64,000 bases of DNA from an uncultured Candidatus Saccharibacteria bacterium. Its GTDB lineage: Bacteria > Patescibacteriota > Minisyncoccia > Phycocordibacterales > UBA2100. The translations under genes were made by a program, and so were the position numbers. This document shows, piece after piece, positions 7,226-33,847 of this stretch. The stretch lies in assembly GCA_964399865.1 (NCBI GenBank), contig CAYNRJ010000001.1:475984-539983 (forward strand). The letters run 5' to 3'. Position 1 is the stretch's first letter; every line of letters starts with the position of its first letter. The notes under the pieces are model-generated. The model was not told the origin of the DNA. It made no database searches and saw only the letters and a list, made by a program, of their open reading frames with translations.

Positions 7226-7972
7226 TTATTTTAATGCATCGAGGAGCGCACCAAATTCTGATGCGTGGATACTCGCACGACCGACAAGAAAGCCCGACGT
7301 GTCGCCGTGCGCGAGCATCGCAACTGCGTTCGTTGAATCTACTGAACCTCCATATAAAATTTTCATTTTGTGTCCGATCTCACCATGCAATTCAACAACA
7401 GTTTTGCGTATAAAAATTGCCATCTCATGCATGTCCCTTGGAGCCATCGCGGTCGCTCCCCCAATCGCCCAGAGCGGTTCGTACGTGACGATCACGCGAT
7501 TCACTCGAGCAGAAACATCAGTGAGACCGACACGTAATTGTTCACGAACGATCCCAAAATGTTCTGCGCCTTGGGTCCGTACTTTTTCACCGACGCACAG
7601 AATAGGAATTAGTTTCGTAAAAAGTGCGGCCGTTACTTTTCTTCGAGTATCATCATTTGATTCCCCCATCTCCCTCCTTTCCGCATGACCGATTATGACG
7701 TAGGAAGCTCCTGCCTCTTTTGCTTGTTGCATTGAGATCTCCCCTGTATGAGCTCCGCTTGGTTCAAAATGTGCGTTCTGCGCTGCAAATAAGACTTTTC
7801 CTCCGCGAATTTCTTTCGCGAGCTGACGTAGATACAGAGCAGGCGGAGCAACGACAATCGTCGTATGACTAGCCATACTCGCGAGATGCTTCGTCTCTTC
7901 AAGGAGTCGCTTTGCTTCTCGCCACGAGGGAGGGTTCATCTTCCAGTTCGCGACCACAAGCGATTTTGCCAT
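7226..7972 (-). CDS. tpiA: Triosephosphate isomerase
   Basis: ORF 7226..8284 trimmed to 'MAKSLVVANWKMNP'; 'GHAERR', 'YEPLWAIGG' TIM signatures; 249 aa matches TIM length. The upstream 105-codon extension crosses intergenic repeat A and is taken as spurious. Confidence 0.85.
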   Translation of the reverse strand: MAKSLVVANWKMNPPSWREAKRLLEETKHLASMASHTTIVVAPPALYLRQLAKEIRGGKVLFAAQNAHFEPSGAHTGEISMQQAKEAGASYVIIGHAERREMGESNDDTRRKVTAALFTKLIPILCVGEKVRTQGAEHFGIVREQLRVGLTDVSARVNRVIVTYEPLWAIGGATAMAPRDMHEMAIFIRKTVVELHGEIGHKMKILYGGSVDSTNAVAMLAHGDTSGFLVGRASIHASEFGALLDALK

Positions 7973-8024
7973 TGCCGCGATTGTACCATGCTGCTTCTTC
8001 CCTACCTCAAGCGAGGGACGATGC

Positions 8025-8103
8025 CTCTTGAGGGTCTTCGCAGGCGCGGCGGCGCCGAGACCGAGCGCTGCGCCAGCAGGCGCAGATAGCGACCCGAAAG
8101 AGG
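8025..8103. repeat. GC-rich ~80-nt intergenic element, copy A (second copy at 13253-13333)
   Basis: Direct repeat with about 4 mismatches over ~75 nt; 5' CCTCTT pairs with 3' AAGAGG, forming the terminal stem; lies between tpiA and the PilX-like gene. Confidence 0.7.
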
Positions 8104-8117
8104 TATCGTTCCAAGCG

Positions 8118-9563
8118 TTAATTCTCTCTCCAAAGCGCAAACTTATAGTCCGTCGAAATAATTGGCGTAAACGGTGGCGGAGAAAAGGCGAGCAATTGAT
8201 CGTAGTAATCGTATCGTTGCAAATAACCCGATATCGTAACCCCGCCCGAGACCCACGCTGTTCCCGTGCGGCCATTCGAGACAACTGTCCCTACTGTTGT
8301 GAGTTCGCTTTGTGTCACATACGACGCGTACGATGACCCCACCCTTTGGCTGTTATCGTATGAAGAGCTGTTCGTAAAGAAGTCGCGACCATAGTGCCCA
8401 CTTTGTGCGACGAAGACCCCATGTATTTCCATATCGTCAGGAGACACGAGCGGGATAAGAACGTTGCGCTCGGCAATCACCGTGAGGCCATCCGTTCCAT
8501 CATTTGATGCGTATAAAATGTCATCGCGTAGATATGCGTCCGGACTCGTACTGGAATTATCCGGAGTCGCGGCAACAACGGTTACTTTCCCATTTACTGT
8601 ACCTTCTATCCATACGCGGTCCTCGAAGAAAAGGAGACTGCAGTCAGACGGAATTGCGTATGTTCCAAGGAGCGACTGATTACTAATAGTGCTGTACTCT
8701 GTTCCCCACCCGTACTGACTAGAGGAACTTGGGTGCCCGACGGTCGCAGACACTCTATATATAGTCACTGTGCCATTAGAATTGAAGATAAGATGGTACC
8801 CGCGATTATTCACAGTGCCGGAGGCAGCTGCTCGATAAATTCCTCCCTCGTTTTGAGCTTTAGTCCTAAGGTCCGTAAAATTTACTCCGATTGCAGCGAA
8901 ATTCACATTCGGAACCGGATAGGTCCAGAGCGCTGGGTTACTTCCACTTCCAACGACACCCGGCGCATTTGATTGCGTAGGAGAACAATTGTAGTTCGAG
9001 TCACAGCTCCAAGTCGCTACAGCACTCATGACATCGGAGTTGTGTGTTGCATCCATTCGGACTCCACCGTTCGAGTGATACGGTCCTCGAATGTTTCTGT
9101 CCGGACCCGCCCATACGTTGCTATTTAATAGGTATGAATATTCAGCAACCGAGGGCATCATGTACCGTGCTGAAAGCGTGCGCTTAAATCCTACGCCGGC
9201 GTTCGATCTCCCTTCCGACACAAGATCCACCCATTGCACCGCATCGCATTGAAGATTTGCAGTTGCGGTCACCGTGGCATCCCCTATCTCTCCTCCCTCA
9301 GGATCATCCACATCATAGTCGTATGGACTTACGAGCCCAGTACCGTCATCAAGGATCTCAGGATTATGCGCAAGGAACCATCGATAATATTCAAGACCTG
9401 CTTCCGCAACATGGAGTGCCTGCTCTCTCGCATACAGAGCGCGTCCATATTTAGATTGTGTAAGCGCGTAACTCGAGATCGTTCCAAGAATTAGGCCGAA
9501 CACACCGATGAATGCTACGACGAGCATGACAGTGATCCCTGATTCTGATGTTCTTTTTGTCAT
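8118..9563 (-). CDS. Large type IV pilin-like / PilX-like minor pilin protein
   Basis: N-terminal hydrophobic helix 'ITVMLVVAFIGVFGLILG' followed by a PilX_N-like 'ALYAREQALHVAEAGLE'; 481 aa, Ser/Thr/Asn-rich extracellular part. Confidence 0.55.
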   Translation of the reverse strand: MTKRTSESGITVMLVVAFIGVFGLILGTISSYALTQSKYGRALYAREQALHVAEAGLEYYRWFLAHNPEILDDGTGLVSPYDYDVDDPEGGEIGDATVTATANLQCDAVQWVDLVSEGRSNAGVGFKRTLSARYMMPSVAEYSYLLNSNVWAGPDRNIRGPYHSNGGVRMDATHNSDVMSAVATWSCDSNYNCSPTQSNAPGVVGSGSNPALWTYPVPNVNFAAIGVNFTDLRTKAQNEGGIYRAAASGTVNNRGYHLIFNSNGTVTIYRVSATVGHPSSSSQYGWGTEYSTISNQSLLGTYAIPSDCSLLFFEDRVWIEGTVNGKVTVVAATPDNSSTSPDAYLRDDILYASNDGTDGLTVIAERNVLIPLVSPDDMEIHGVFVAQSGHYGRDFFTNSSSYDNSQRVGSSYASYVTQSELTTVGTVVSNGRTGTAWVSGGVTISGYLQRYDYYDQLLAFSPPPFTPIISTDYKFALWREN

Positions 9564-9566
9564 AGA

Positions 9567-10163
9567 TTAATGACCGACGAGATTTCGGATTGCAGCAGAT
9601 GAACTGAGTACGAACTGATTCGGAAGTACTGCGACGTTCACGTTCACCGCGAGACTGACCTTTACGAATCGAACGCTTGTCCAGTTGGCGAAATTCGTTA
9701 TCTCAGAGCCGAGCTCATCATAGTACCTGAACGTGGCGAGTCCTTGTGCGGTGTTGCGAACATATTGTCCAAGAACTGATGCGGATTCAACGCCGGTGTA
9801 ATCAGGTGGATTTCCCGTTGGCTCCAGAACTCCTCGCATGAGGTTTGTTCCTGAGATGTAGTAGTGCACACGTTCAATCGTCGGATCATTGTCTATGTCC
9901 GCGTAAAAAATGAAATCGTTCGCGCCGATCGAATGAATCGGGAATGCGCCCTGACTTGAGTATGCCGCTTCGCGAATTGTTCTCACCGACTGCTCGAGTG
10001 CACGCTGACCTGTTGTGACCGCTTCTGCTTGTTCGATCGTGTATGCATTCGTTCGATAGAAATATAAGAGCGTCGAAACTATCGCGAGCATCACCATTGT
10101 GAATACTGAGATCCATACTAAGACTTCAATGAATGTCATCCCTCGCTCGTGTTCGTATCTCAT
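9567..10163 (-). CDS. Prepilin-type N-terminal cleavage/methylation domain protein (pseudopilin)
   Basis: 'GMTFIEVLVWISVFTMVMLAI' is a class III signal (G-FTLIE-like); 198 aa. Confidence 0.7.
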   Translation of the reverse strand: MRYEHERGMTFIEVLVWISVFTMVMLAIVSTLLYFYRTNAYTIEQAEAVTTGQRALEQSVRTIREAAYSSQGAFPIHSIGANDFIFYADIDNDPTIERVHYYISGTNLMRGVLEPTGNPPDYTGVESASVLGQYVRNTAQGLATFRYYDELGSEITNFANWTSVRFVKVSLAVNVNVAVLPNQFVLSSSAAIRNLVGH

Positions 10164-11923
10164 AGCGAAGGCAACACTACTGATAATTGGGACTCATTAG
10201 ATACAGTGACCGCACTACTCTCGTACGTCTGATAGCCGGCCTTCGAAACGCTGATCGAATAGGTTGCCGTTTCGAGATCATTAAAGAATGTTTGCCCGCA
10301 TGACGAGGTGGTGAGTGTCGTGTCATATCCTGTTTTGTATAGTCGTACAGATGCTCCTTCGAGAAGGCTTCCCGTATTTGAACGTACATCTACTAGTAGA
10401 GTGTTATCCGTGTATGGGAGGAGGTACAGACGCGTGGTCTGAGAGCCTCCTGGCGTCAAAACTTCTGGCTGAGGGTTACACGAGCCCGCGAGATTGAAGC
10501 CTGTTGTTGTCGCAATTCCGAGTTGGTATGTATCCGCTTCGATACCAGAGAGGACAATCGATGCGCCTGCACCACTGTCATGCGTCGTATTGTATTTGTA
10601 CACGGTCGGACTATTCCCGATCGTCTTCGATCCTCGCATAGAGAATGACTGATTTGGAAGAGCCTCTGGCCCTGACCTGTAGGAAACACTCCACGACTCA
10701 AGTGAAGGTGTAACATCTGGATCATCTGTAAGTAACTCTGCACCAAATCGCAGACTCGTATACGTCCCATGTGGGATCGCGGAGATGTCGATCGGCGAAG
10801 TACTGAAGCCCGCACTATTTCCCGACAAGACCGCGTCCGGAATGAGATTGTCGGTGGTATCGTACACGCGGTACAAAATATCTGTCTGTGCGGGAGTTGT
10901 ATCTTCAAATGAAATAGAATCCCAACCTACGAGCAAATTAGGTGTGAGTGTTACCGAACGCACAGAGCCAGGTGAAACGTATGGAGCCCCACCTGCCAAG
11001 ACCACTTCCCCACCTGAAATATCCGCGCTTGTTGTTGCGGAGACCAAACTCGCATCAGCAAATGAATCATCCCAAGTTCGCACAACATATTGCATGTATG
11101 TCTCGATCGTTTTCGTCGCGGTGAGATCAATTGTAAATGTTGCCGATGTTGTTTGATCATTCACGACAGTCACGTGACGCGGAGTTGGATTTGGGTTTGA
11201 AACACTTACTGGATATGTTTGCGCTGTTGAATATCCTGGCTTTGAAACGGTAATCTGATAATTACTTGCCGCGGGGGCCCCGATGAATGAAACAATTCCT
11301 GCGACATTCGTATACGTCCTGATACTTATCGGGGGTACGGTCCCTGTGTTGATGATATCGATCTGCGCACTTGAAACCGGAATCGCTGCTTCATTTACCA
11401 CACTCACCGTAAGGACTCCCCCCGCAACCGCTGTCTCAACGCCAACAGGTGAAACACGTCCCACGAGTTCCAGGCTTCTCTCACCATTCCTAGAGGTCCA
11501 GGAAACATCGACGCGAATCGTCTTGTAGTCAGCAATAATATCGTTCTCATCAAGAGCCCCGAGACCATCGGCAGGGTCGTCTGAATAAATGACAGAGGTG
11601 CGTCTTGTGTAGGGCACTTCGTTCCACGTAACTGTTTCAGTCTGAGGAACTATGCCCGCGGGAATACCTCCAACGACTCCAATCTGAGGATACGAAAGTG
11701 AACGAAGATACTCCATGCGCTCATTTAATAGAGCAATGGCGCCAGCACGCGTTTTGTTATTCGTAACAACCTCAAGAGAATATTGGAATACCGCCGTTAT
11801 GCCCGCAAAGACTACGAGCATGAGAGCGATCGCAACCATCGAGTCGAGGAGCGTTGCACCTTTTTCTCCAGAGTCCGCAGGAATTATTTTGAATTTCTTT
11901 TGCATAGCTAGGAGCGTACGCAC
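10160..11923 (-). CDS. Large pilin-like protein with a prepilin-like N-terminus and beta-rich extracellular domains
   Basis: 'GATLLDSMVAIALMLVVFAGI' pilin-like N-terminal helix; 587 aa, Thr/Ser/Val-rich; 4-nt overlap with the downstream pseudopilin gene (operon coupling). Confidence 0.55.
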   Translation of the reverse strand: MRTLLAMQKKFKIIPADSGEKGATLLDSMVAIALMLVVFAGITAVFQYSLEVVTNNKTRAGAIALLNERMEYLRSLSYPQIGVVGGIPAGIVPQTETVTWNEVPYTRRTSVIYSDDPADGLGALDENDIIADYKTIRVDVSWTSRNGERSLELVGRVSPVGVETAVAGGVLTVSVVNEAAIPVSSAQIDIINTGTVPPISIRTYTNVAGIVSFIGAPAASNYQITVSKPGYSTAQTYPVSVSNPNPTPRHVTVVNDQTTSATFTIDLTATKTIETYMQYVVRTWDDSFADASLVSATTSADISGGEVVLAGGAPYVSPGSVRSVTLTPNLLVGWDSISFEDTTPAQTDILYRVYDTTDNLIPDAVLSGNSAGFSTSPIDISAIPHGTYTSLRFGAELLTDDPDVTPSLESWSVSYRSGPEALPNQSFSMRGSKTIGNSPTVYKYNTTHDSGAGASIVLSGIEADTYQLGIATTTGFNLAGSCNPQPEVLTPGGSQTTRLYLLPYTDNTLLVDVRSNTGSLLEGASVRLYKTGYDTTLTTSSCGQTFFNDLETATYSISVSKAGYQTYESSAVTVSNESQLSVVLPSL

Positions 11924-11930
11924 GTACCAG

Positions 11931-13151
11931 CTATCCGATGTTTTCCGACAAAGAGTAGATAGGCGAAATCATCGATATCGCGAAGAACCCGACAGCGCCT
12001 CCGATGAAAAGCATGAGGAGGGGTTCAACAATTGTTGAGAGATCTTTTGTTTTTCGATCTACCTCATCTTCGTAGAAGCCTGCAAGACGTTTCAACATTT
12101 CAGTTACTTCTCCGGTCTCTTCTCCGACTGCCATCATCTCCCCCACGAACGCAGGGTAGAGATCTTCGCGACGCGTGAATGCAGTAGAGAGCGGCTGACC
12201 TTGCGAGACATTTGTGCGAGCCGTTTTGATAACCTCTCTGAAGTAAGAATTTTGGACAACTTCGCCTGCGATATCAAGGGAGGCTAGAACATCGACTCCA
12301 GATGAGAGCAGGGATGCGAGCGTGCGAGCAGTGCGGGCTGCATTCACTTCGCGCACCATTGGACCTATGAGTGGCATTTTCAAAAAGAAAATATCTTTAA
12401 TCCGCTTCCCGATAACGGTGCGGCCGCCCATATAGAACGCGCCGCAAAAGGTGACGAGACCAAAAAGTGCGAGCACTGTGTATTCAACGAGAATATTACT
12501 GATCGTAATGATGAGTTGAGTCGAGGCTGGCAATTCCGCATTCATTTCTGCAAAAGTCTGCGCAAGCGTTGGCACGACGTTCACCATCATGAACGCGCCG
12601 ATACCAAAAATCGCAACGACAACAACTGCTGGATACATGAGAGCGCTGCGAATTTTTTTCTTTAACTGATACATGCGCTCCATCTGATCGCCGATTGTCG
12701 CAAGCGCGCCCGAGAGGTCTCCGCTCTCTTCCCCTGCTCGCACCATGGCGACGAACAACTTACTGAACACGTGCGGGAATTTACCGAGTGATTGATGGAG
12801 AGTATCTCCTCGCCGCACATTGGCCGCGATCTCGGAGATGACATGCCCGAGTTTCGGATTCTTCATTTGTCGCTCGAGAACGGAAAGCGCACGCGCGAGA
12901 GCAAGTCCGGCAGCGAGCATTGCGCCTAGATTGCGCGCAAATAATATTTTGTCGTACTCCTTAACACTCCCGATCCTCGAACTCCAGTATGCGAGGCTCC
13001 ACATCTTCTGCCCACCTTCTTCGGACATCGCGACGAGTCGTCCACCCTCTTTTCTCAAAACTTCGTACAACTCAAAACGATCACGTGCTTCCGCGACACC
13101 TTTATATACTTCACCGTCCGTCTTTTCGGCGGTATAGACGTACCGAGTCAT
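11931..13151 (-). CDS. pilC: Type IV pilus assembly platform protein PilC / GspF family
   Basis: 406 aa; two GspF repeats and polytopic membrane regions (e.g. 'PLSTAFTRREDLYPAFVGEMMAVGEETG', 'DLSGALATIGDQMER'). Confidence 0.8.
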   Translation of the reverse strand: MTRYVYTAEKTDGEVYKGVAEARDRFELYEVLRKEGGRLVAMSEEGGQKMWSLAYWSSRIGSVKEYDKILFARNLGAMLAAGLALARALSVLERQMKNPKLGHVISEIAANVRRGDTLHQSLGKFPHVFSKLFVAMVRAGEESGDLSGALATIGDQMERMYQLKKKIRSALMYPAVVVVAIFGIGAFMMVNVVPTLAQTFAEMNAELPASTQLIITISNILVEYTVLALFGLVTFCGAFYMGGRTVIGKRIKDIFFLKMPLIGPMVREVNAARTARTLASLLSSGVDVLASLDIAGEVVQNSYFREVIKTARTNVSQGQPLSTAFTRREDLYPAFVGEMMAVGEETGEVTEMLKRLAGFYEDEVDRKTKDLSTIVEPLLMLFIGGAVGFFAISMISPIYSLSENIG

Positions 13152-13252
13152 TCAATTAATTATAGCGCGCAAAATCTCAAAGAAATGTCTGATGCAAAAT
13201 AAATGTGCAAACATTGAAATGCATTTTCAAATTCAAAAGCGAGGGGTACTGC

Positions 13253-13333
13253 TCTCTGAGGGTCTTCGCAGGCGCGACGGCGCCGAGACCGAGCGCTGCA
13301 CCAGCAGGCGCAGATAGCGACCCGAGGAGAGTA
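13253..13333. repeat. GC-rich ~80-nt intergenic element, copy B
   Basis: Near-identical to 8025-8103; terminal stem here is CTCTC/GAGAG, a compensatory change relative to copy A; lies between pilC and pilB. Confidence 0.7.
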
Positions 13334-13350
13334 GTACTCTGAGCGCCCCC

Positions 13351-15120
13351 CTATTCAGAAATAACGCGGAGCACCTCTTCAATCGAAGTAAGGCCTTGTG
13401 CTGCTTTGAAGATTCCGTCTTCTGCCATTGTGAGCATCCCTTCGCTCTTCGCTTGCTTCTCGACTTCCGCCGCAGTTGCACTCTTCATCACGAGCTCTCG
13501 AATGGTTGGAGTGACTGATAGAATTTCGTAAATACCCTTTCGTCCTGCGTATCCTGTTGGACTTTGCGCACTTTCCTTTGGACGATAGAACGGTACGTTT
13601 TTCCATGTCGCATCTTTTGAAACAACTTTTTCTTCCTTGAGCGCACGAAGAACCGCACCTGTATCTATCATCTTTTCTAAATGAGCCTGCTCGTCGCGCG
13701 AGAGTTCGTACTTCTCTTTCTCGGGAGTAAGGACTCGCACAAGACGCTGACCAATTGCGATGCGGAGAGTTGAGACCAAGAGAAATGGCTCGACTCCCAT
13801 ATCTAGTAGACGCGGTATAGCTCCCGCAGCGGAGTTCGTGTGGAGTGTCGAGAGGACGAGGTGACCTGTGAGGGCGGCGTTAATAGCAAGAGAGGCAGTC
13901 TCCTTATCGCGGATTTCTCCCACCATCACGATGTCTGGGTCCTGACGCACGAGAGAGCGGAGACCGTTGGCAAATGTGAATCCGATCTCAGGACGAACTT
14001 GCGTCTGATTTATTCGTTTCATCTGGTATTCGATAGGATCCTCGATCGTTGAGATGTTTACGTTCGGCGTATTTACGATATCGAGGAGCGTGTAGAGCGT
14101 CGTTGATTTACCAGCGCCTGTCGGACCACAGGCGAGCACCATTCCTGTCGTTGCGCGCATCGCTTCGTGCATGCGATCGAGTCCTACCCCATGAATACCT
14201 ATAGATTCCAATGTGAAACCTGAGATCGAGTCCCGCAGGAGTCGCATGACGATTTTCTCTCCGTAATACGTTGGAAGGACAGAAACACGGAACGAAATTT
14301 TCTCGCCAGCGGACTCTGCTCCGAAACGTCCGTCCTGTGGCAGGCGATGCTCGTCGAGACGCATGCTCGCTAACACTTTTATGCGCGCAGTGATCGCGGC
14401 GGCAGCATGCTTCGGCAGCTCCATTGCGTCGTGAAGAATGCCGTCGATGCGGTAGCGTATAAGTAGAGCGGTTTCCATCGGCTCAATATGTATATCTGAT
14501 GCACCTTGGGCATTCGCGTGACGGATAAGAGTATCAACGACACGCACCGCCGACGCACCCTCAGCCATCTGACGGAGGTCTTCTTCTTTTGTCGGCGCTC
14601 CTCCTTTCTCAAGTGCGGCCATTTCGCGCTCGATCACAGAGCCAAGATTATCCTTGAGCCCCTGCTGATACTGCTTCAGCGCGTATTTGATACTCGCATC
14701 ATCCGTAAGACGTGGGAGGATCTTGAGCCGTGTCTTCTTTTTTATGAAATCGATCGCGGCAAGATCATCGGTATCAAGCATCGCAACCTCAAGCTCATCG
14801 CCGCGGTGACTGTACGCGATGATGTTGTTACGTCGTGCGATAGGCTCGGGAACTAAAGAAAGTGTTTCGTATTTGATGTCAGTTCCCGTGAGAGCGACGA
14901 AAGGAATTCCGAGAATGTACGCGTACGTTCGGCGGAGTTCATCCTCCCCTATTACATTGTGCGCCTTTAAAATGTCGCCAACTGGTTTACCAGATTCTTT
15001 TGCCTCTTTTTCTGCGCTATCAAATGCTTTTGCAGAAACTAACCCTGCATCAGAGAGAAATGATTTGAGATGAGTGTCGCTTATATACATAGCGCTGGTT
15101 TCATTAAAAGTATACCTCAT
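13351..15120 (-). CDS. pilB: Type IV pilus assembly ATPase PilB (GspE family) with N-terminal GSPII_E_N domain
   Basis: 589 aa; Walker A 'GPTGAGKSTT', 'DIVMVGEIRD' Walker B/Asp box, His box, C-terminal tetracysteine-like region. Confidence 0.85.
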   Translation of the reverse strand: MRYTFNETSAMYISDTHLKSFLSDAGLVSAKAFDSAEKEAKESGKPVGDILKAHNVIGEDELRRTYAYILGIPFVALTGTDIKYETLSLVPEPIARRNNIIAYSHRGDELEVAMLDTDDLAAIDFIKKKTRLKILPRLTDDASIKYALKQYQQGLKDNLGSVIEREMAALEKGGAPTKEEDLRQMAEGASAVRVVDTLIRHANAQGASDIHIEPMETALLIRYRIDGILHDAMELPKHAAAAITARIKVLASMRLDEHRLPQDGRFGAESAGEKISFRVSVLPTYYGEKIVMRLLRDSISGFTLESIGIHGVGLDRMHEAMRATTGMVLACGPTGAGKSTTLYTLLDIVNTPNVNISTIEDPIEYQMKRINQTQVRPEIGFTFANGLRSLVRQDPDIVMVGEIRDKETASLAINAALTGHLVLSTLHTNSAAGAIPRLLDMGVEPFLLVSTLRIAIGQRLVRVLTPEKEKYELSRDEQAHLEKMIDTGAVLRALKEEKVVSKDATWKNVPFYRPKESAQSPTGYAGRKGIYEILSVTPTIRELVMKSATAAEVEKQAKSEGMLTMAEDGIFKAAQGLTSIEEVLRVISE

Positions 15121-15160
15121 TGAATCTCTCTATCTTTTTCCACATGGCATACTAGTGGGT

Positions 15161-16459
15161 ATGTACGAAGGACCTGAGAAATCTTTTCCAAAGAAGACCG
15201 GGAAAGAGCACTTGCGAGGCCTTCCGAAAGTAGGTGTCCGAGGCATCGTCAGTAAAGTCGCCTCTCCTCTCTTACTTAAAGCGATTAATAAACATCGAGA
15301 AAAGGCTGCAAAAGCCCTCAAGGAGGGCCAGCGTTTCCCGGACCAATCGGAGCGGGCGCTTATTGATGCCGTTAACGAGATGCTTGCAGGAGAATTCGCT
15401 CGCTTAAGGCGCACGTCGGAAGGCATGGGACGTTACGAACCTTTGCAATATGAACAGGTTCACGTCGTGAGTGGAACTGAGGCGCTTGGAGAAGATTTTT
15501 TCTCGAAGACATACGGTCTCCACCACTCACTTACAGATGTCATTACCCTCGCAGAAAAGACAGAGCTAGAAAGTAAACTCCACTTCCTCACGCATGAGGC
15601 GGTGCATTCCTCGGCATTTGTAACTCACGGTGTCACCCCCCCTTGGGGTTCCAAGGAAAGGAAGAAAGCCGATATGAGTTCGCGAAGCGGATACAACATC
15701 GATGACGCTCGGCAGCGCGGCATGCTCTCCGCCTCAGACGGATCATTTTTGAGCTTTAATGAAGCCGTCGTCGAATCTATCACCCAGAGATTGCTCGCGC
15801 AGCATGCGCAAAAGCTTGCGGGCATCATTCCGAGCATCGATCTACAGAAATTACTACAAGCCGGCGAAAATACATATCGAACTGAGCGCAAAATCCTCGA
15901 CGTATTCATTGAAGAGACGGCAAAAAGAACAGGGGAGGACACCTCTCTCATACGCGAGCGAATTGAGCGGGAGCATTTTGGCGGACACATGATGCACATT
16001 CGCACCATCGAACGCGCCTGCGGCGAGAATTCCGTACTATTACTCTCTCTCTTTAACGGGTACTTTTCGAACAAAGAGGAAGCCCCGGAGCAAGTTAGAC
16101 AATTTTTAGCGACTCCAGTCCCTCGAAAGCGCTATCGCCTCGCGCGATCAATACTCCTAATTGATGATTTTGCCGACTATGTCGAACGAGCTGATTGGAG
16201 AAGCATACGTGCATTTTTGCGACGTCCTCTGCCCACTATGAAAGATGGGGGGTTCGAACGGGATTCCCGGGATACCATCGAGCGGATATATGCAAAACTT
16301 CAGGCCGTAGAGGTGCTAATGGATGGGGAAGTAAGAAAATCGGATGAGCTATTCCGAGCTGTTCGCAACGATGAAGCCGAGGTAATGTCTAAAGTCCGAG
16401 CCTACGAAGCCGTCTTTGGACCAATCGAGCTGCCCGAGCGCCCCTTGCTTGACTTTTAA
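15161..16459 (+). CDS. Hypothetical cytoplasmic protein with an HExxH (HEAVH) motif
   Basis: ORF 15074..16459 trimmed to MYEGPEK to avoid overlap with the pilB start; 'LTHEAVHSSAF' could be a zinc-metallopeptidase-like motif; no other recognisable domain. Confidence 0.4.
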   Translation: MYEGPEKSFPKKTGKEHLRGLPKVGVRGIVSKVASPLLLKAINKHREKAAKALKEGQRFPDQSERALIDAVNEMLAGEFARLRRTSEGMGRYEPLQYEQVHVVSGTEALGEDFFSKTYGLHHSLTDVITLAEKTELESKLHFLTHEAVHSSAFVTHGVTPPWGSKERKKADMSSRSGYNIDDARQRGMLSASDGSFLSFNEAVVESITQRLLAQHAQKLAGIIPSIDLQKLLQAGENTYRTERKILDVFIEETAKRTGEDTSLIRERIEREHFGGHMMHIRTIERACGENSVLLLSLFNGYFSNKEEAPEQVRQFLATPVPRKRYRLARSILLIDDFADYVERADWRSIRAFLRRPLPTMKDGGFERDSRDTIERIYAKLQAVEVLMDGEVRKSDELFRAVRNDEAEVMSKVRAYEAVFGPIELPERPLLDF

Positions 16460-17815: not shown

Positions 17816-17836
17816 ACGTTTGTATTAAAAGTCTTT

Positions 17837-17874
17837 GCGATGCGCGCGCCTCAGGTGCGCGCATCGCTTTTTTG
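17837..17874 (+). terminator. Rho-independent terminator downstream of nusA
   Basis: GCGATGCGCGCGCC-tcag-GTGCGCGCATCGC stem followed by TTTTTT. Confidence 0.8.
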
Positions 17875-20189: not shown

Positions 20190-20207
20190 CAAACATCGTA
20201 TTTCAAG

Positions 20208-20244
20208 AAACGCCCGAGGCTATTTTGCCTCGGGCGTTTCGTTT
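20208..20244 (+). terminator. Rho-independent terminator
   Basis: AAACGCCCGAGGC-tatttt-GCCTCGGGCGTTT followed by a T-rich tract. Confidence 0.75.
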
Positions 20245-25695: not shown

Positions 25696-25714
25696 TTTCT
25701 TTAAATCCCTTACA

Positions 25715-25741
25715 AAAATCCCGCTCGAAGCGGGATTTTTG
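25715..25741 (+). terminator. Rho-independent terminator after hup
   Basis: AAATCCCGC-tcgaa-GCGGGATTT followed by TTTT. Confidence 0.75.
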
Positions 25742-25752
25742 CATATATACCA

Positions 25753-27587: not shown

Positions 27588-27989
27588 TTAGATCTCCCCA
27601 TCCAATACCTGTTCAAACAGGCGGCAGCGGGCCGTTTTAGTCGATTCAGACAGTATTACTCCGACCACATCGATTTGGTATTCTCGATCATCACCTGAAG
27701 CCTCCATATATAGGGTCGCCGTTCTGGCAACCTTCCTTAACTTTGACGCATGGACCAATTCCTCAGGCCTGTAGTCCATTTCACGTGAAATGTCGGGCAG
27801 AATTTCACGTGAAATAGCCTTTACCTCTATAAAACGCACCTGGTTATGTATCTCGGCTATTATATCAATCTCTCCCCAGGGCTTTCGGTAGTTCCTCTCA
27901 ATGATCTTGTATCCCTTACCCTCAAGGAACTGACAGGCAATGCTTTCACCTAAGTTGCCGACTTGCCTTCTGTCAGTCCCAACCTTCAT
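27588..27989 (-). CDS. YraN/UPF0102-family putative endonuclease
   Basis: 133 aa; 'GNLGESIACQFLEGKGYKIIERNYR...GEIDIIA...VRFIEVKA' matches the UPF0102 pattern; the CDS itself contains two copies of a 14-bp palindrome. Confidence 0.65.
   Translation of the reverse strand: MKVGTDRRQVGNLGESIACQFLEGKGYKIIERNYRKPWGEIDIIAEIHNQVRFIEVKAISREILPDISREMDYRPEELVHASKLRKVARTATLYMEASGDDREYQIDVVGVILSESTKTARCRLFEQVLDGEI
27778..27815. promoter_or_regulatory. Two copies of the perfect palindrome ATTTCACGTGAAAT (27778-27791 and 27802-27815) inside the yraN-like CDS
   Basis: Each encodes the ISRE(I/M) peptide in-frame; a third copy lies at 28049-28062 in the upstream intergenic region. Confidence 0.5.
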
Positions 27990-29717: not shown

Positions 29718-31184
29718 ATGACTGAGAAGCTCTCGACTCCAAAAGAAATTCTCGAAATCCACACTGCACTTCTTACTGCAGGTTTTGAGTCATACCTTGT
29801 CGGAGGATGTGTGCGTGATCTCATTATTGGACGAGAGCCAAAAGATTGGGACCTAACGACCAATGCAAAGCCCGAAGAAATCCAGGCATTATTTGAAGAG
29901 ACTTTCTATGAAAACGATTACGGCACTGTCGGAGTCGTAACGAAAGCCACCGACCCAAGAATGAAAGTGGTGGAGATAACGCCGTACCGCATAGAAGGGA
30001 AGTACTCGAACGCGAGACATCCGGATGAAGTGCGTTTTAGCGATAATATCCGAGATGATCTGAAGCGACGTGATTTCACAATCAACGCGCTCGCGTATGC
30101 GCCAGACACGAATACTTTAGTAGACGAACATGGTGGTAAGGAAGATATCGCGAGAAAACTTGTAACTACTGTAGGGGAGGCGAGTGAGCGATTCAAAGAG
30201 GACGCACTTCGAATGTTACGTGCCGTGCGGCTTTCTGCGGAATTGGATTTTGCTATCGAAACAAAAACAGCAGCCGCGATCCATGAGTCGGCGTCTCTCC
30301 TCGAAAAAATATCTCGCGAACGAGTGCGCGATGAGTTTATCCGTATAATAGAAAGCCCGCGCCCAATGCAGGCGCTCTACATTTCGCAAAAGCTCGGCAT
30401 CTTAAAATTCATTATTCCTGAACTCGAAGAGGGAATTGGTTGTGCGCAAAACCAAGCGCATGCGTACGACGTGTTCGAACACCTGCTCCGCGCACTTCAA
30501 GGCGCTGCAGATAAAGAATGGTCACTAGAGGTGCGTATCGCAGCACTCCTCCACGATGTAGGAAAGCCAGCTACGAGACGGTGGTCTGACGAAAAGAAAG
30601 ATTGGACGTTCCACGGGCACGAAGTAGTGAGTGCACGCATGGCAAAAAAAATACTCACTGATCTAAGGATGCCGAAAGAAATGATAGAAAAAATTGAAGC
30701 ACTCATTCGGACACATATGTTCTTCTCTGATCCAGATACTGTGACCCTCTCTGCTGTCAGACGCACGATCCGAAACGTCAGTCCTGCAAACATAAAAGAT
30801 CTATTGAATTTGCGTATATGCGATCGCATAGGAACGGGACGACCCAAAGAACAACCATTTCGTCTCCGCAAATATATGTCCATGGTAGACGAGGCACTGC
30901 GCGATCCCGTTTCAGTTTCTATGCTCAAGATCGATGGAACTAGGCTTATGGAGTTGGGGGAGAAAGCGGGACCTCGTATCGGATGGATACTGCACGCTCT
31001 TCTTGAGGAAGTGCTGGATGACCCAAAAAAGAACACGGAAGACTATTTGGAGAAGATGGTTGGGGAATATTCAAAGCTCTCAGACCCCGAATTAAAGAAA
31101 CTTGGTGAGGCAGGGAAAGACCGCCGTACTGAAGAGGAAGAAGCTGCAGTCCGACTGCTTAGAGAAAAACACCACGTCTCCTAA
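29718..31184 (+). CDS. cca: CCA-adding tRNA nucleotidyltransferase (polymerase-beta head) with a C-terminal HD domain
   Basis: 'GGCVRDLIIGREPKDWDLTT', 'RRDFTINALA' nucleotidyltransferase motifs; HD motif 'LLHDVGKP'; immediately downstream of two CCA-less tRNA genes. Confidence 0.85.
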   Translation: MTEKLSTPKEILEIHTALLTAGFESYLVGGCVRDLIIGREPKDWDLTTNAKPEEIQALFEETFYENDYGTVGVVTKATDPRMKVVEITPYRIEGKYSNARHPDEVRFSDNIRDDLKRRDFTINALAYAPDTNTLVDEHGGKEDIARKLVTTVGEASERFKEDALRMLRAVRLSAELDFAIETKTAAAIHESASLLEKISRERVRDEFIRIIESPRPMQALYISQKLGILKFIIPELEEGIGCAQNQAHAYDVFEHLLRALQGAADKEWSLEVRIAALLHDVGKPATRRWSDEKKDWTFHGHEVVSARMAKKILTDLRMPKEMIEKIEALIRTHMFFSDPDTVTLSAVRRTIRNVSPANIKDLLNLRICDRIGTGRPKEQPFRLRKYMSMVDEALRDPVSVSMLKIDGTRLMELGEKAGPRIGWILHALLEEVLDDPKKNTEDYLEKMVGEYSKLSDPELKKLGEAGKDRRTEEEEAAVRLLREKHHVS

Positions 31185-31704
31185 CCAATGCAATAAAACA
31201 CCTAGGAGGCTCGCTTGGGCATGTGTTCAACGGGGCCTAGCGAGCACGGCGGTGCGAGCTCGAGGAAATTTTCAGCAGAAAATTATCCGTGCCCTGGGGA
31301 ATACATGCCCAAAAAGAGCCGAACTACAGCGACAAAAGAAAAAGGCCGTTCCCACGGATAGACACGGATTCAATGATAATCTGTGCCCGTCCGTAAGAAC
31401 GGCCTCTACTTAACGTTCGGTTTAGGATCTAACGTAGGCACTAAACTAAATTTTTGGGATGCTTTGCAATCCCTTGATTACGTAGTGTGCCTGTCGGATT
31501 CCCTGAGTCTTGCGACTCATCTTGCTCTTTTTTCTCTTTTGGCAAGAACGTAGTCCCTGCTTGATGAGTAAGAGGAAGAATTAAAGATCTAGAACGTGTA
31601 AGTTAGGGTCCAAAGCTGTGCTCTGAACTCCCTGTCCTATAGGATAGTTTACTAATGGACAATGTAAAGGACAGGGTGTGGATATCTTTCCCCTTACGTG
31701 TCCT

Positions 31705-33742: not shown

Positions 33743-33847
33743 TCCTCTAAGTATGCCATGTCGCACAACATAGATTGTCCCGACACATGTCTGTGTCGGA
33801 AAATCTGACGATATTGTGCAACATATACGTCGCACAATATCGACTCC

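Follow-up and report, generated by a model that had tools for sequence, protein, structure and literature searches.

The window, a 64,000-nt stretch of contig CAYNRJ010000001.1 from an uncultured Candidatus Saccharibacteria bacterium, contains a pilus locus whose genes all lie on the minus strand: pilB, pilC, genes for proteins of 587, 198 and 481 residues, tpiA and pgk. Two copies of a GC-rich intergenic element are embedded in this gene string, copy B between pilB and pilC, and copy A between the open reading frame (ORF) of 481 codons and tpiA. The original prediction, made from the sequence alone, had noticed both copies and offered three explanations: a repeat of the REP or MITE kind (MITE, miniature inverted-repeat transposable element), a processing or attenuation structure in the pilus transcript, or recombination sites bracketing a pilin cassette. 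We find that the element is a member of a family of hairpin-forming, probably mobile intergenic repeats which is not specific to pilus genes, and for which we found neither a match in Rfam 15 nor a description in the literature.

A repeat search of the window aligned the two copies as a direct repeat of 89 nt with 89% identity (8009–8097 and 13237–13325). Their inner 68 nt (8030–8097 and 13258–13325) differ by two mismatches only, G/A at 8047 and G/A at 8072. The GC fraction of this segment is 0.69 in comparison with about 0.5 in the surroundings, so the description of two GC-rich, near-identical copies holds. The terminal helix with compensatory changes is also real, and it is longer than had been described: folding gives each copy an outer stem (P1) of 15 bp with several G·U pairs on the plus strand. 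The stem sequences of the two copies are unlike, with the pairing kept in both. The right end of copy A directly adjoins the TAA stop codon of the 481-residue ORF (8118–8120, minus strand), and that of copy B the TAG stop codon of pilB (cta at 13351–13353). A covariance model built from relatives, R1, scores copy A with 100.1 bits and copy B with 94.1 bits. Scanning the window with R1 revealed a third, diverged member, copy C (31222–31305, 33.1 bits, E = 7.6e-6), so that three copies lie within 64 kb. Copy C is in sense orientation, just 3' of the gene for the CCA-adding enzyme (29718–31184, plus strand) and ahead of a convergent gene.

Two pattern scans revealed many further members. The first, run on one genome per species, used a gapped pattern from both ends of the core and left the middle free. 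It matched six metagenome-assembled genomes (MAGs) of Patescibacteria, the group also known as the candidate phyla radiation (CPR); among the matches are two Saccharibacteria MAGs (three loci), one Paceibacterota, one Kaiserbacteria and one unplaced Patescibacteria MAG. The unconstrained middle is conserved in these matches, and both inner hairpins carry perfect compensatory changes. The sole match outside the CPR, in a Pseudobdellovibrionaceae MAG (L006, 640–698), has neither the inner hairpins nor the outer stem and is most likely due to chance, about 0.4 chance matches being expected. The second scan, performed on metagenomes, used the middle of the core only and left the ends free. It yielded 122 instances on 111 stretches, with 91 distinct cores, and here the unconstrained ends are conserved. 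The scans cross-validate each other because each found conserved the part left free in the other. At least eight copies occur on one 588-kb contig and three on a 265-kb contig. Altogether the element was found in more than 100 mutually unrelated contexts; the rpsP operon, ABC transporters and efflux genes are among them. One Saccharibacteria copy (L008) has the same core as copies A and B; the near-identity of these two is therefore not evidence of a recent duplication.

Searches for a known counterpart were negative. Three patterns gave no match in viral contigs, and thus no sign of phage carriage. In the window, Rfam 15 detected four tRNAs only at the gathering threshold, and matches at chance level only at E ≤ 10 (Scr6106 with 18.5 bits, Atu_C9 with 7.5 bits). 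Literature searches by keywords and by sequence strings found no description of the element. TIGR-Tas was considered as a match from the literature and rejected, as its arrays are tandem and unrelated.

The element consists of a long stem, variable but paired, which is capped by a three-way junction of about 60 nt. The consensus reads P1 (variable), P2, CUUCGCAG, hairpin 1 (5 bp, GNCG loop), GAGACYGAGCG, hairpin 2 (7 bp, AGCA loop), AUAGC, P2' and P1'; beyond P1 lies a conserved internal loop in which AGCGAG faces GAGCG. This three-helix fold was tested on 74 distinct aligned cores of 84 nt. Standard pairs occupy 95.7% of the cells, in comparison with 73.5% in column shuffles and 35–49% with slid partners, and double-sided changes were found in 18 of the 27 pairs. 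The two inner hairpins are unrelated in sequence and covary independently of each other. A blind RNAalifold run recovered the outer stem and both hairpins identically. Applied to the full 152-nt form of the element, RNAalifold predicted one hairpin of 54 pairs (−88.7 kcal/mol), 23 of them with double changes, some inside the inverted ends. The fold is thus conserved through compensatory change and does not reflect chance similarity, as the original prediction had argued from two copies.

A protein-coding element can be dismissed: the two differences between A and B are non-synonymous in the open frame, and the covariation of the hairpins ignores codons and preserves no reading frame. By-eye comparison with hammerhead, twister and HDV-like cores, K-turn and box C/D motifs, the tRNA-like T-loop, SRP, 5S and the L11-binding rRNA domain gave no fit, and none of these was matched by Rfam. 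Four members carry a 47-nt insertion which replaces or extends hairpin 1 (L040, 22–152; L049, 5298–5428; L056, 2810–2940; L080, 8164–8294). This shows that the hairpin 1 arm tolerates variable length.

The fold is kept on one strand only. An A·C pair on one strand corresponds to a G·U pair on the other, and in the outer stems the strand of the search pattern has 120 G·T and 14 A·C pairs. When the copies are divided by the orientation of the flanking genes, the ratios in the four classes are 33:5, 31:8, 21:5 and 10:2. The bias is alike in all four and is therefore independent of host transcription, and on this ground a transcription-linked mutational origin of the G·T excess was rejected. Folding of both strands of 81 elements favoured the pattern strand in 75, with a mean gain of 8.1 kcal/mol. 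For the window copies, the energies of the plus and minus strands are −65.9 versus −54.1 kcal/mol (copy A) and −61.6 versus −51.0 kcal/mol (copy B); in mRNA sense, copy B folds no better than its shuffles (z −1.1). The folded strand in the window is the plus strand, antisense to pilB, pilC and tpiA. On one contig (L015, L016) the orientation of the element flips within 5 kb. A link to replication direction is therefore unlikely, and we rejected it.

The element is also conserved in place. In five species the rpsP operon contains it, in antisense orientation, between trmD and a gene for a KhpA-type KH-domain protein. The cores of these copies are 92–98% identical, and the third codon positions of trmD are 37–61% identical, near saturation. 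The P1 arms, with 40–60% identity, are still fully paired, and all non-Watson–Crick pairs of the stems are G·U on the strand of the element. Such a pattern marks a single-stranded fold that is under constraint and evolves where it sits. Exchange with sister copies by gene conversion could account for the constancy of the core, but not for stems that are particular to each copy.

Other properties are those of mobile DNA. The element is 110–155 nt long and contains no ORF, it occurs in multiple dispersed copies, and it is present or absent at orthologous sites, all of which is typical of MITEs. About half of the members form a 152-nt subfamily with inverted ends of about 20 bp (GAGCATGTTTGAAA...TTTCAAACATGCTC). 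Members of this subfamily are flanked by TA on the left in 25 of 33 cases, on the right in 26 and on both sides in 19, and their typical flanks have the form (C/T)TA–element–TA(G/A). Many fill precisely the gap between two convergent genes, from one TAG stop codon to the other; if the element inserted into a CTAG common to the two genes, each of them would regain its stop. Crude ORF calls assign 23 copies to antisense-tandem, 19 to convergent, 13 to sense-tandem and seven to divergent contexts, and at least one gene 3' end is touched by 55 of 62 copies.

Several variants were encountered. The shell, that is the inverted-repeat ends, surrounds a strongly diverged core (GGAACCUCCCGCAGCCGAUGAGGCGAGGAUUAAGG...AGCA...) in L013 (8735–8885) and L043 (around 7159), and L102 (around 8096) carries a derivative with the terminal inverted repeats (TIRs) only, placed around a short loop with no core. 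Apart from these, solo matches to the TIRs were chance hits inside coding sequence. The window copies A and B belong to a shell-less group in which AGCGAG...GAGCG is kept. Of the three options offered originally, the REP- or MITE-like repeat comes closest, in that the family is dispersed and MITE-like; the features of REPs (GTAG, a length of 20–40 nt) are not present. Randomly scattered copies lacking covariation had been named as the mark of a simple dispersed repeat. Many scattered copies do exist, but their covariation is clear.

Comparison with relatives was informative for the pilus locus. The order pilB, pilC, genes for proteins of about 590, 195 and 481 residues, tpiA and pgk is kept in L126/L127 (PilC 75% identical) and L128/L129 (72%). 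Both sites are empty in these two relatives, where the intergenic region is only 68 or 45 nt long at site B, and 41 or 77 nt at site A. In the closest relative, L123 (PilC 83% identical), a diverged orthologous copy is present at site A. Copy number and positions of the element differ among related genomes, and the arrangement of the pilus locus is identical in the other contigs with this pilC, which come from four sequencing runs. The conserved gene order around empty sites speaks against a pilin cassette and against a pilus-specific regulator, and the proposed check of related strains gave no indication of a switched pilin cassette. At the site of copy B, L123 (6135–6618) has a gene for a 131-residue four-helix-bundle protein of the 23S_rRNA_IVP/bAvd-like type between AT-rich inverted repeats of about 27 nt. 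The pilB–pilC spacer looks like an insertion hot spot.

The coordinates of the three copies and of the neighbouring genes are compiled in Table 1. The homologues of the window PilC point to a Parcubacteria/Kaiserbacteria-like CPR bacterium. The positions of the copies relative to tpiA, the 481-residue ORF, pilC and pilB had been given correctly; the labels 'PilX-like' and 'minor pilin' for the intervening genes are unsupported, no Pfam family being matched by the 198- and 481-residue proteins. Sequence comparison revealed −10-like boxes before pilC (GCGCTATAAT or GCGCTATACT) and before tpiA (TGGTACAAT) which are kept across relatives (L126, L128, L124). This suggests that pilC and tpiA may have their own promoters within the gene string. 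Each of the two insertions sits between a stop codon and the promoter-like box of the next gene. A sigma-70 promoter scan around A and B reported no promoter-like site in either region, and did not report the conserved −10-like boxes either. A terminator scan found no terminator-like site at copy A or copy B, whose flanks read CCAAGCG and CCCTCGCTT; neither qualifies as an intrinsic terminator, with its GC-rich stem and U-run.

Table 1. Features of the element copies and adjacent genes in the window
Feature	Position	Strand	Remarks
Copy A, whole hairpin element	8009–8117	+	Starts AAGCGAGG; right end ..CCAAGCG
Copy A, P1 5' arm	8015–8029	+	GGGACGATGCCTCTT; pairs with 8097–8111; strand fold −65.9 kcal/mol, z −6.8
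Copy A, three-way-junction core	8032–8095	+	P2 = GGGTC/GACCC
Copy A, hairpin 1	8043–8056	+	Loop GGCG
Copy A, junction between hairpins	within 8032–8095	+	Reads GAGACCGAGCG
Copy A, hairpin 2	8068–8085	+	Loop AGCA
Copy A, P1 3' arm	8097–8111	+	AAGAGGTATCGTTCC; folding
Copy B, whole hairpin element	13237–13350	+	Right end ..GAGCGCCCCCC
Copy B, P1 5' arm	13243–13257	+	GGGGTACTGCTCTCT; pairs with 13326–13340; folding
Copy B, conserved core	13260–13323	+	Folding, covariance model
Copy B, hairpin 1	13271–13284	+	Loop GACG
Copy B, hairpin 2	13296–13313	+	Loop AGCA, one A·C mismatch
Copy B, P1 3' arm	13326–13340	+	GGAGAGTAGTACTCT; folding
Copy C, full hairpin, diverged member	31208–31321	+	Architecture as A/B; hairpin 1 loop GGCG, hairpin 2 loop AGCA, long outer stem
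pilB (T2SSE ATPase)	13351–15120	−	Stop codon touches copy B
−10-like box TATAAT before pilC	13159–13164	−	GCGCTATAAT; sequence comparison; also in relatives without the element
pilC (T2SSF platform protein)	11931–13151	−	Pfam, gene calls
587-residue protein with CarboxypepD_reg domain	between pilC and 198-residue ORF	−	Pfam
481-residue ORF	8118–9563	−	Stop codon touches copy A
Extended −10-like box before tpiA	7980–7988	−	TGGTACAAT; sequence comparison; also in L126, without the element
tpiA	7226–7975	−	True start reads MAKSLVVANWKMN

The tpiA gene was called with 304 codons in L001, which is the window's own sequence (15012–15926; window 7976–8140, minus strand), and with 278 codons in L129 (6526–7362), in comparison with about 250. 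In L001 the extension is caused by copy A, whose reverse complement contains no stop in the frame of tpiA. The conserved start MAKSLVVANWKMN together with the −10 box identifies it as an annotation artefact.

Two further observations concern other repeats of the window. A second direct repeat (429–521 and 1143–1235, 93 nt, 78% identical, spacing 714 nt) looks like the promoter plus N-terminal region at the 5' ends of two paralogues that lie in tandem on the minus strand. Perfect short palindromes at 20207–20240, 17836–17868, 25711–25743, 27776–27817 and 33809–33842 match only the outer stem of R1, scoring 10–15 bits on either strand, and are probably terminator-like hairpins of an ordinary kind outside the family.

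Taken together, copies A, B and C probably belong to a dispersed, non-coding and MITE-like family of structured intergenic repeats of Patescibacteria. Judged from the TA flanks and inverted ends, it would spread by a TA-targeting cut- or copy-and-paste process with the enzyme supplied in trans, of the IS630/Tc1-mariner kind. The conserved module would work as single-stranded RNA of the plus strand, a protein-binding or catalytic fold, and not as double-stranded DNA. Copies A and B would be independent insertions, each placed so that it immediately follows the stop codon of one gene and precedes the −10 box of the gene after it. Their local effect may be, at most, that of transcript-end hairpins or insulators, and they would not be pilus regulators.

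Several points weigh against this interpretation. Copies A, B, C and the other shell-less members have no inverted-repeat ends. The TA flanks of A and B are partial: B has TA at its right end, A is separated from it by a T, and at the left end both copies are without TA. In about 0.85 Mb inspected around copies, neither an autonomous element nor a transposase with matching ends came to light. In the TIR subfamily there is no clean pair of filled and empty sites, so that the flanking TA could belong to the element and not represent a duplication. Covariation is also seen in the inverted ends, an unusual trait for sites bound by a transposase. The sequences sampled are closely related (effective number 1.29), and many 'invariant' columns of the alignment were fixed by the search patterns, though here the two scans serve as a cross-check. 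The strong conservation in place suggests a function at the level of the host or the RNA which a purely selfish MITE would not need. No promoter on the plus strand is visible in the scans around A and B, and with about a third of the copies antisense inside strings of same-direction genes, transcription of the folded strand has no explanation.

The main rival interpretation, compatible with a MITE-like family, takes the copies as genuine small-RNA genes (trans-acting, protein-sequestering or catalytic) whose junction is kept by the host and for which the shell is a mere vehicle. We hold it as a tentative alternative. It would account for the contrast between core and trmD third positions at orthologous loci (92–98% versus 37–61%) with stems changing in compensation, for junction and loop sequences that are conserved across CPR classes, and for a strand-specific selection on the fold that is independent of neighbouring genes. 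However, the scans show no promoter or terminator accompanying the element, its ends are undefined, by eye the upstream flanks of shell-less members have no consistent −10/−35 elements, copy number and positions vary among related genomes, and gene conversion among copies could keep the cores alike without any benefit to the host. More specifically, the three-way junction might be a functional RNA of a new class confined to CPR/Patescibacteria, acting as a ribozyme or as a tightly binding ligand of a conserved protein, and spread by the MITE-like shell; this is less likely than not, yet far from negligible. Action as single-stranded DNA, in which a hairpin is used by an HUH/Y1 transposase (as in REPIN/RAYT or the IS200/IS605 PATEs) or by a tyrosine recombinase (as in folded attC), is unlikely. 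It would not require transcription, and it fits the strand-specific fold with its tolerated G·T pairs and the position right after stop codons, as in attC sites; but TIRs bordered by TA on either side speak for a DDE-type mechanism acting on double-stranded DNA, there is neither a REP-like GTAG motif nor an R''/R' attC consensus, the orientation flip within 5 kb (L015, L016) leaves no link to replication direction, and no RAYT, TnpA or IntI gene was seen near copies.

The two explanations tied to the pilus locus fare worse. A cis-acting RNA (a processing site, an attenuator or a 3' stabiliser) by which pilB, the block from pilC to the 481-residue ORF, and tpiA would be expressed at different levels is improbable: both copies do lie just past stop codons in a same-direction gene string, and the mRNA-sense strand still folds with −54 and −51 kcal/mol, but the fold is maintained on the opposite strand, the mRNA-sense fold of copy B is no better than that of shuffles, the terminator scan has no site at either copy, relatives have the same operon without the elements, and the family occurs in unrelated contexts. 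With the folded strand antisense to the pil genes and no promoter or terminator site at the copies in the scans, the proposed transcript-processing or attenuation structure is not borne out. Least credible, and very improbable in our view, are recombination sites for exchange, inversion or excision of the 5.2-kb block between the copies. Two direct copies with a near-identical core of 68 nt could support homologous deletion; yet the gene order is kept in relatives that lack the elements, with both sites empty in L126–L129, the arrangement is the same in all contigs with this pilC from four sequencing runs, the core identity of A and B is a family-wide constraint (as the core of L008 shows) and not a recent duplication, and no recombinase gene is among the called genes nearby. 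For a family in more than 100 unrelated contexts, the cassette proposal was dropped, and the outcome for the pilus locus is negative: there is no indication of pilin cassette switching.

CPR genomes are tiny and streamlined, and a multi-copy element of 110–155 nt that is conserved across classes and at orthologous sites is unexpected baggage in them. Either a lineage generally considered to have little mobile DNA harbours an active mobile element, or the element is a functional RNA that has escaped description; both may be true. If the new RNA class were real, selection would be maintaining a 'mobile RNA gene' in these minimal genomes, even where it lies antisense within operons for ribosomal proteins and pili. 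A fold that is confined to one strand, and antisense to operons, raises the question of its transcription and its binding partner. In practice, covariance model R1 could seed a new RNA family, the element is a marker for strain-level insertion polymorphism, and the wrongly extended tpiA at copy A illustrates how gene callers are misled by it.

Among known systems, REP/BIME elements and REPINs are likewise dispersed, intergenic, palindromic hairpin repeats, often between convergent genes. REPs are 20–40 nt long with a 5' GTAG, and REPINs are inverted REP pairs; the CPR element has neither, and TA flanks or inverted-repeat ends such as it shows are foreign to REPs. With no GTAG-headed palindrome present, mutually unrelated inner hairpins and no RAYT gene seen near copies, identity with REP/REPIN was rejected. 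Integron attC sites share the strand-specific folded hairpin directly past a stop codon, with the structure kept and the stem sequence varying. However, attC keeps its outer R''/R' boxes and varies the centre, whereas the CPR element keeps the centre and varies the stems, is not organized in a cassette array and has mixed orientation. The absence of R''/R' boxes (RYYYAAC/GTTRRRY) at its ends, and of an integrase among the called genes around A and B, excludes an attC site. Orphan RNA motifs in Rfam such as HEARO, the IS605-orfB motifs and the RAGATH motifs resemble the element in having a covariation-backed fold tied to mobile DNA; unlike them, it has no Rfam 15 match even at E ≤ 10 and no associated protein gene was found.

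RUP of pneumococcus, Correia/CREE of Neisseria and ERIC/IRU of enterobacteria are TA-targeting, MITE-like intergenic repeats that form long RNA hairpins, and orientation-dependent RNA effects have been reported for ERIC and Correia. The CPR element resembles them in its size class (100–200 nt), in being non-coding, in the TIRs of its 152-nt subfamily with TA on both flanks, in occurring in several to many copies at intergenic or 3' positions in either orientation, and in the long hairpin predicted if it is transcribed. It differs in that there is no sequence similarity, no cognate insertion sequence is known for it, and many members, including the window copies, have no inverted-repeat shell. 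Further, and in contrast to these repeats, its tip is a three-way junction conserved in sequence across CPR classes, compensatory changes maintain its fold on one of the strands, and its copies are conserved at orthologous loci.

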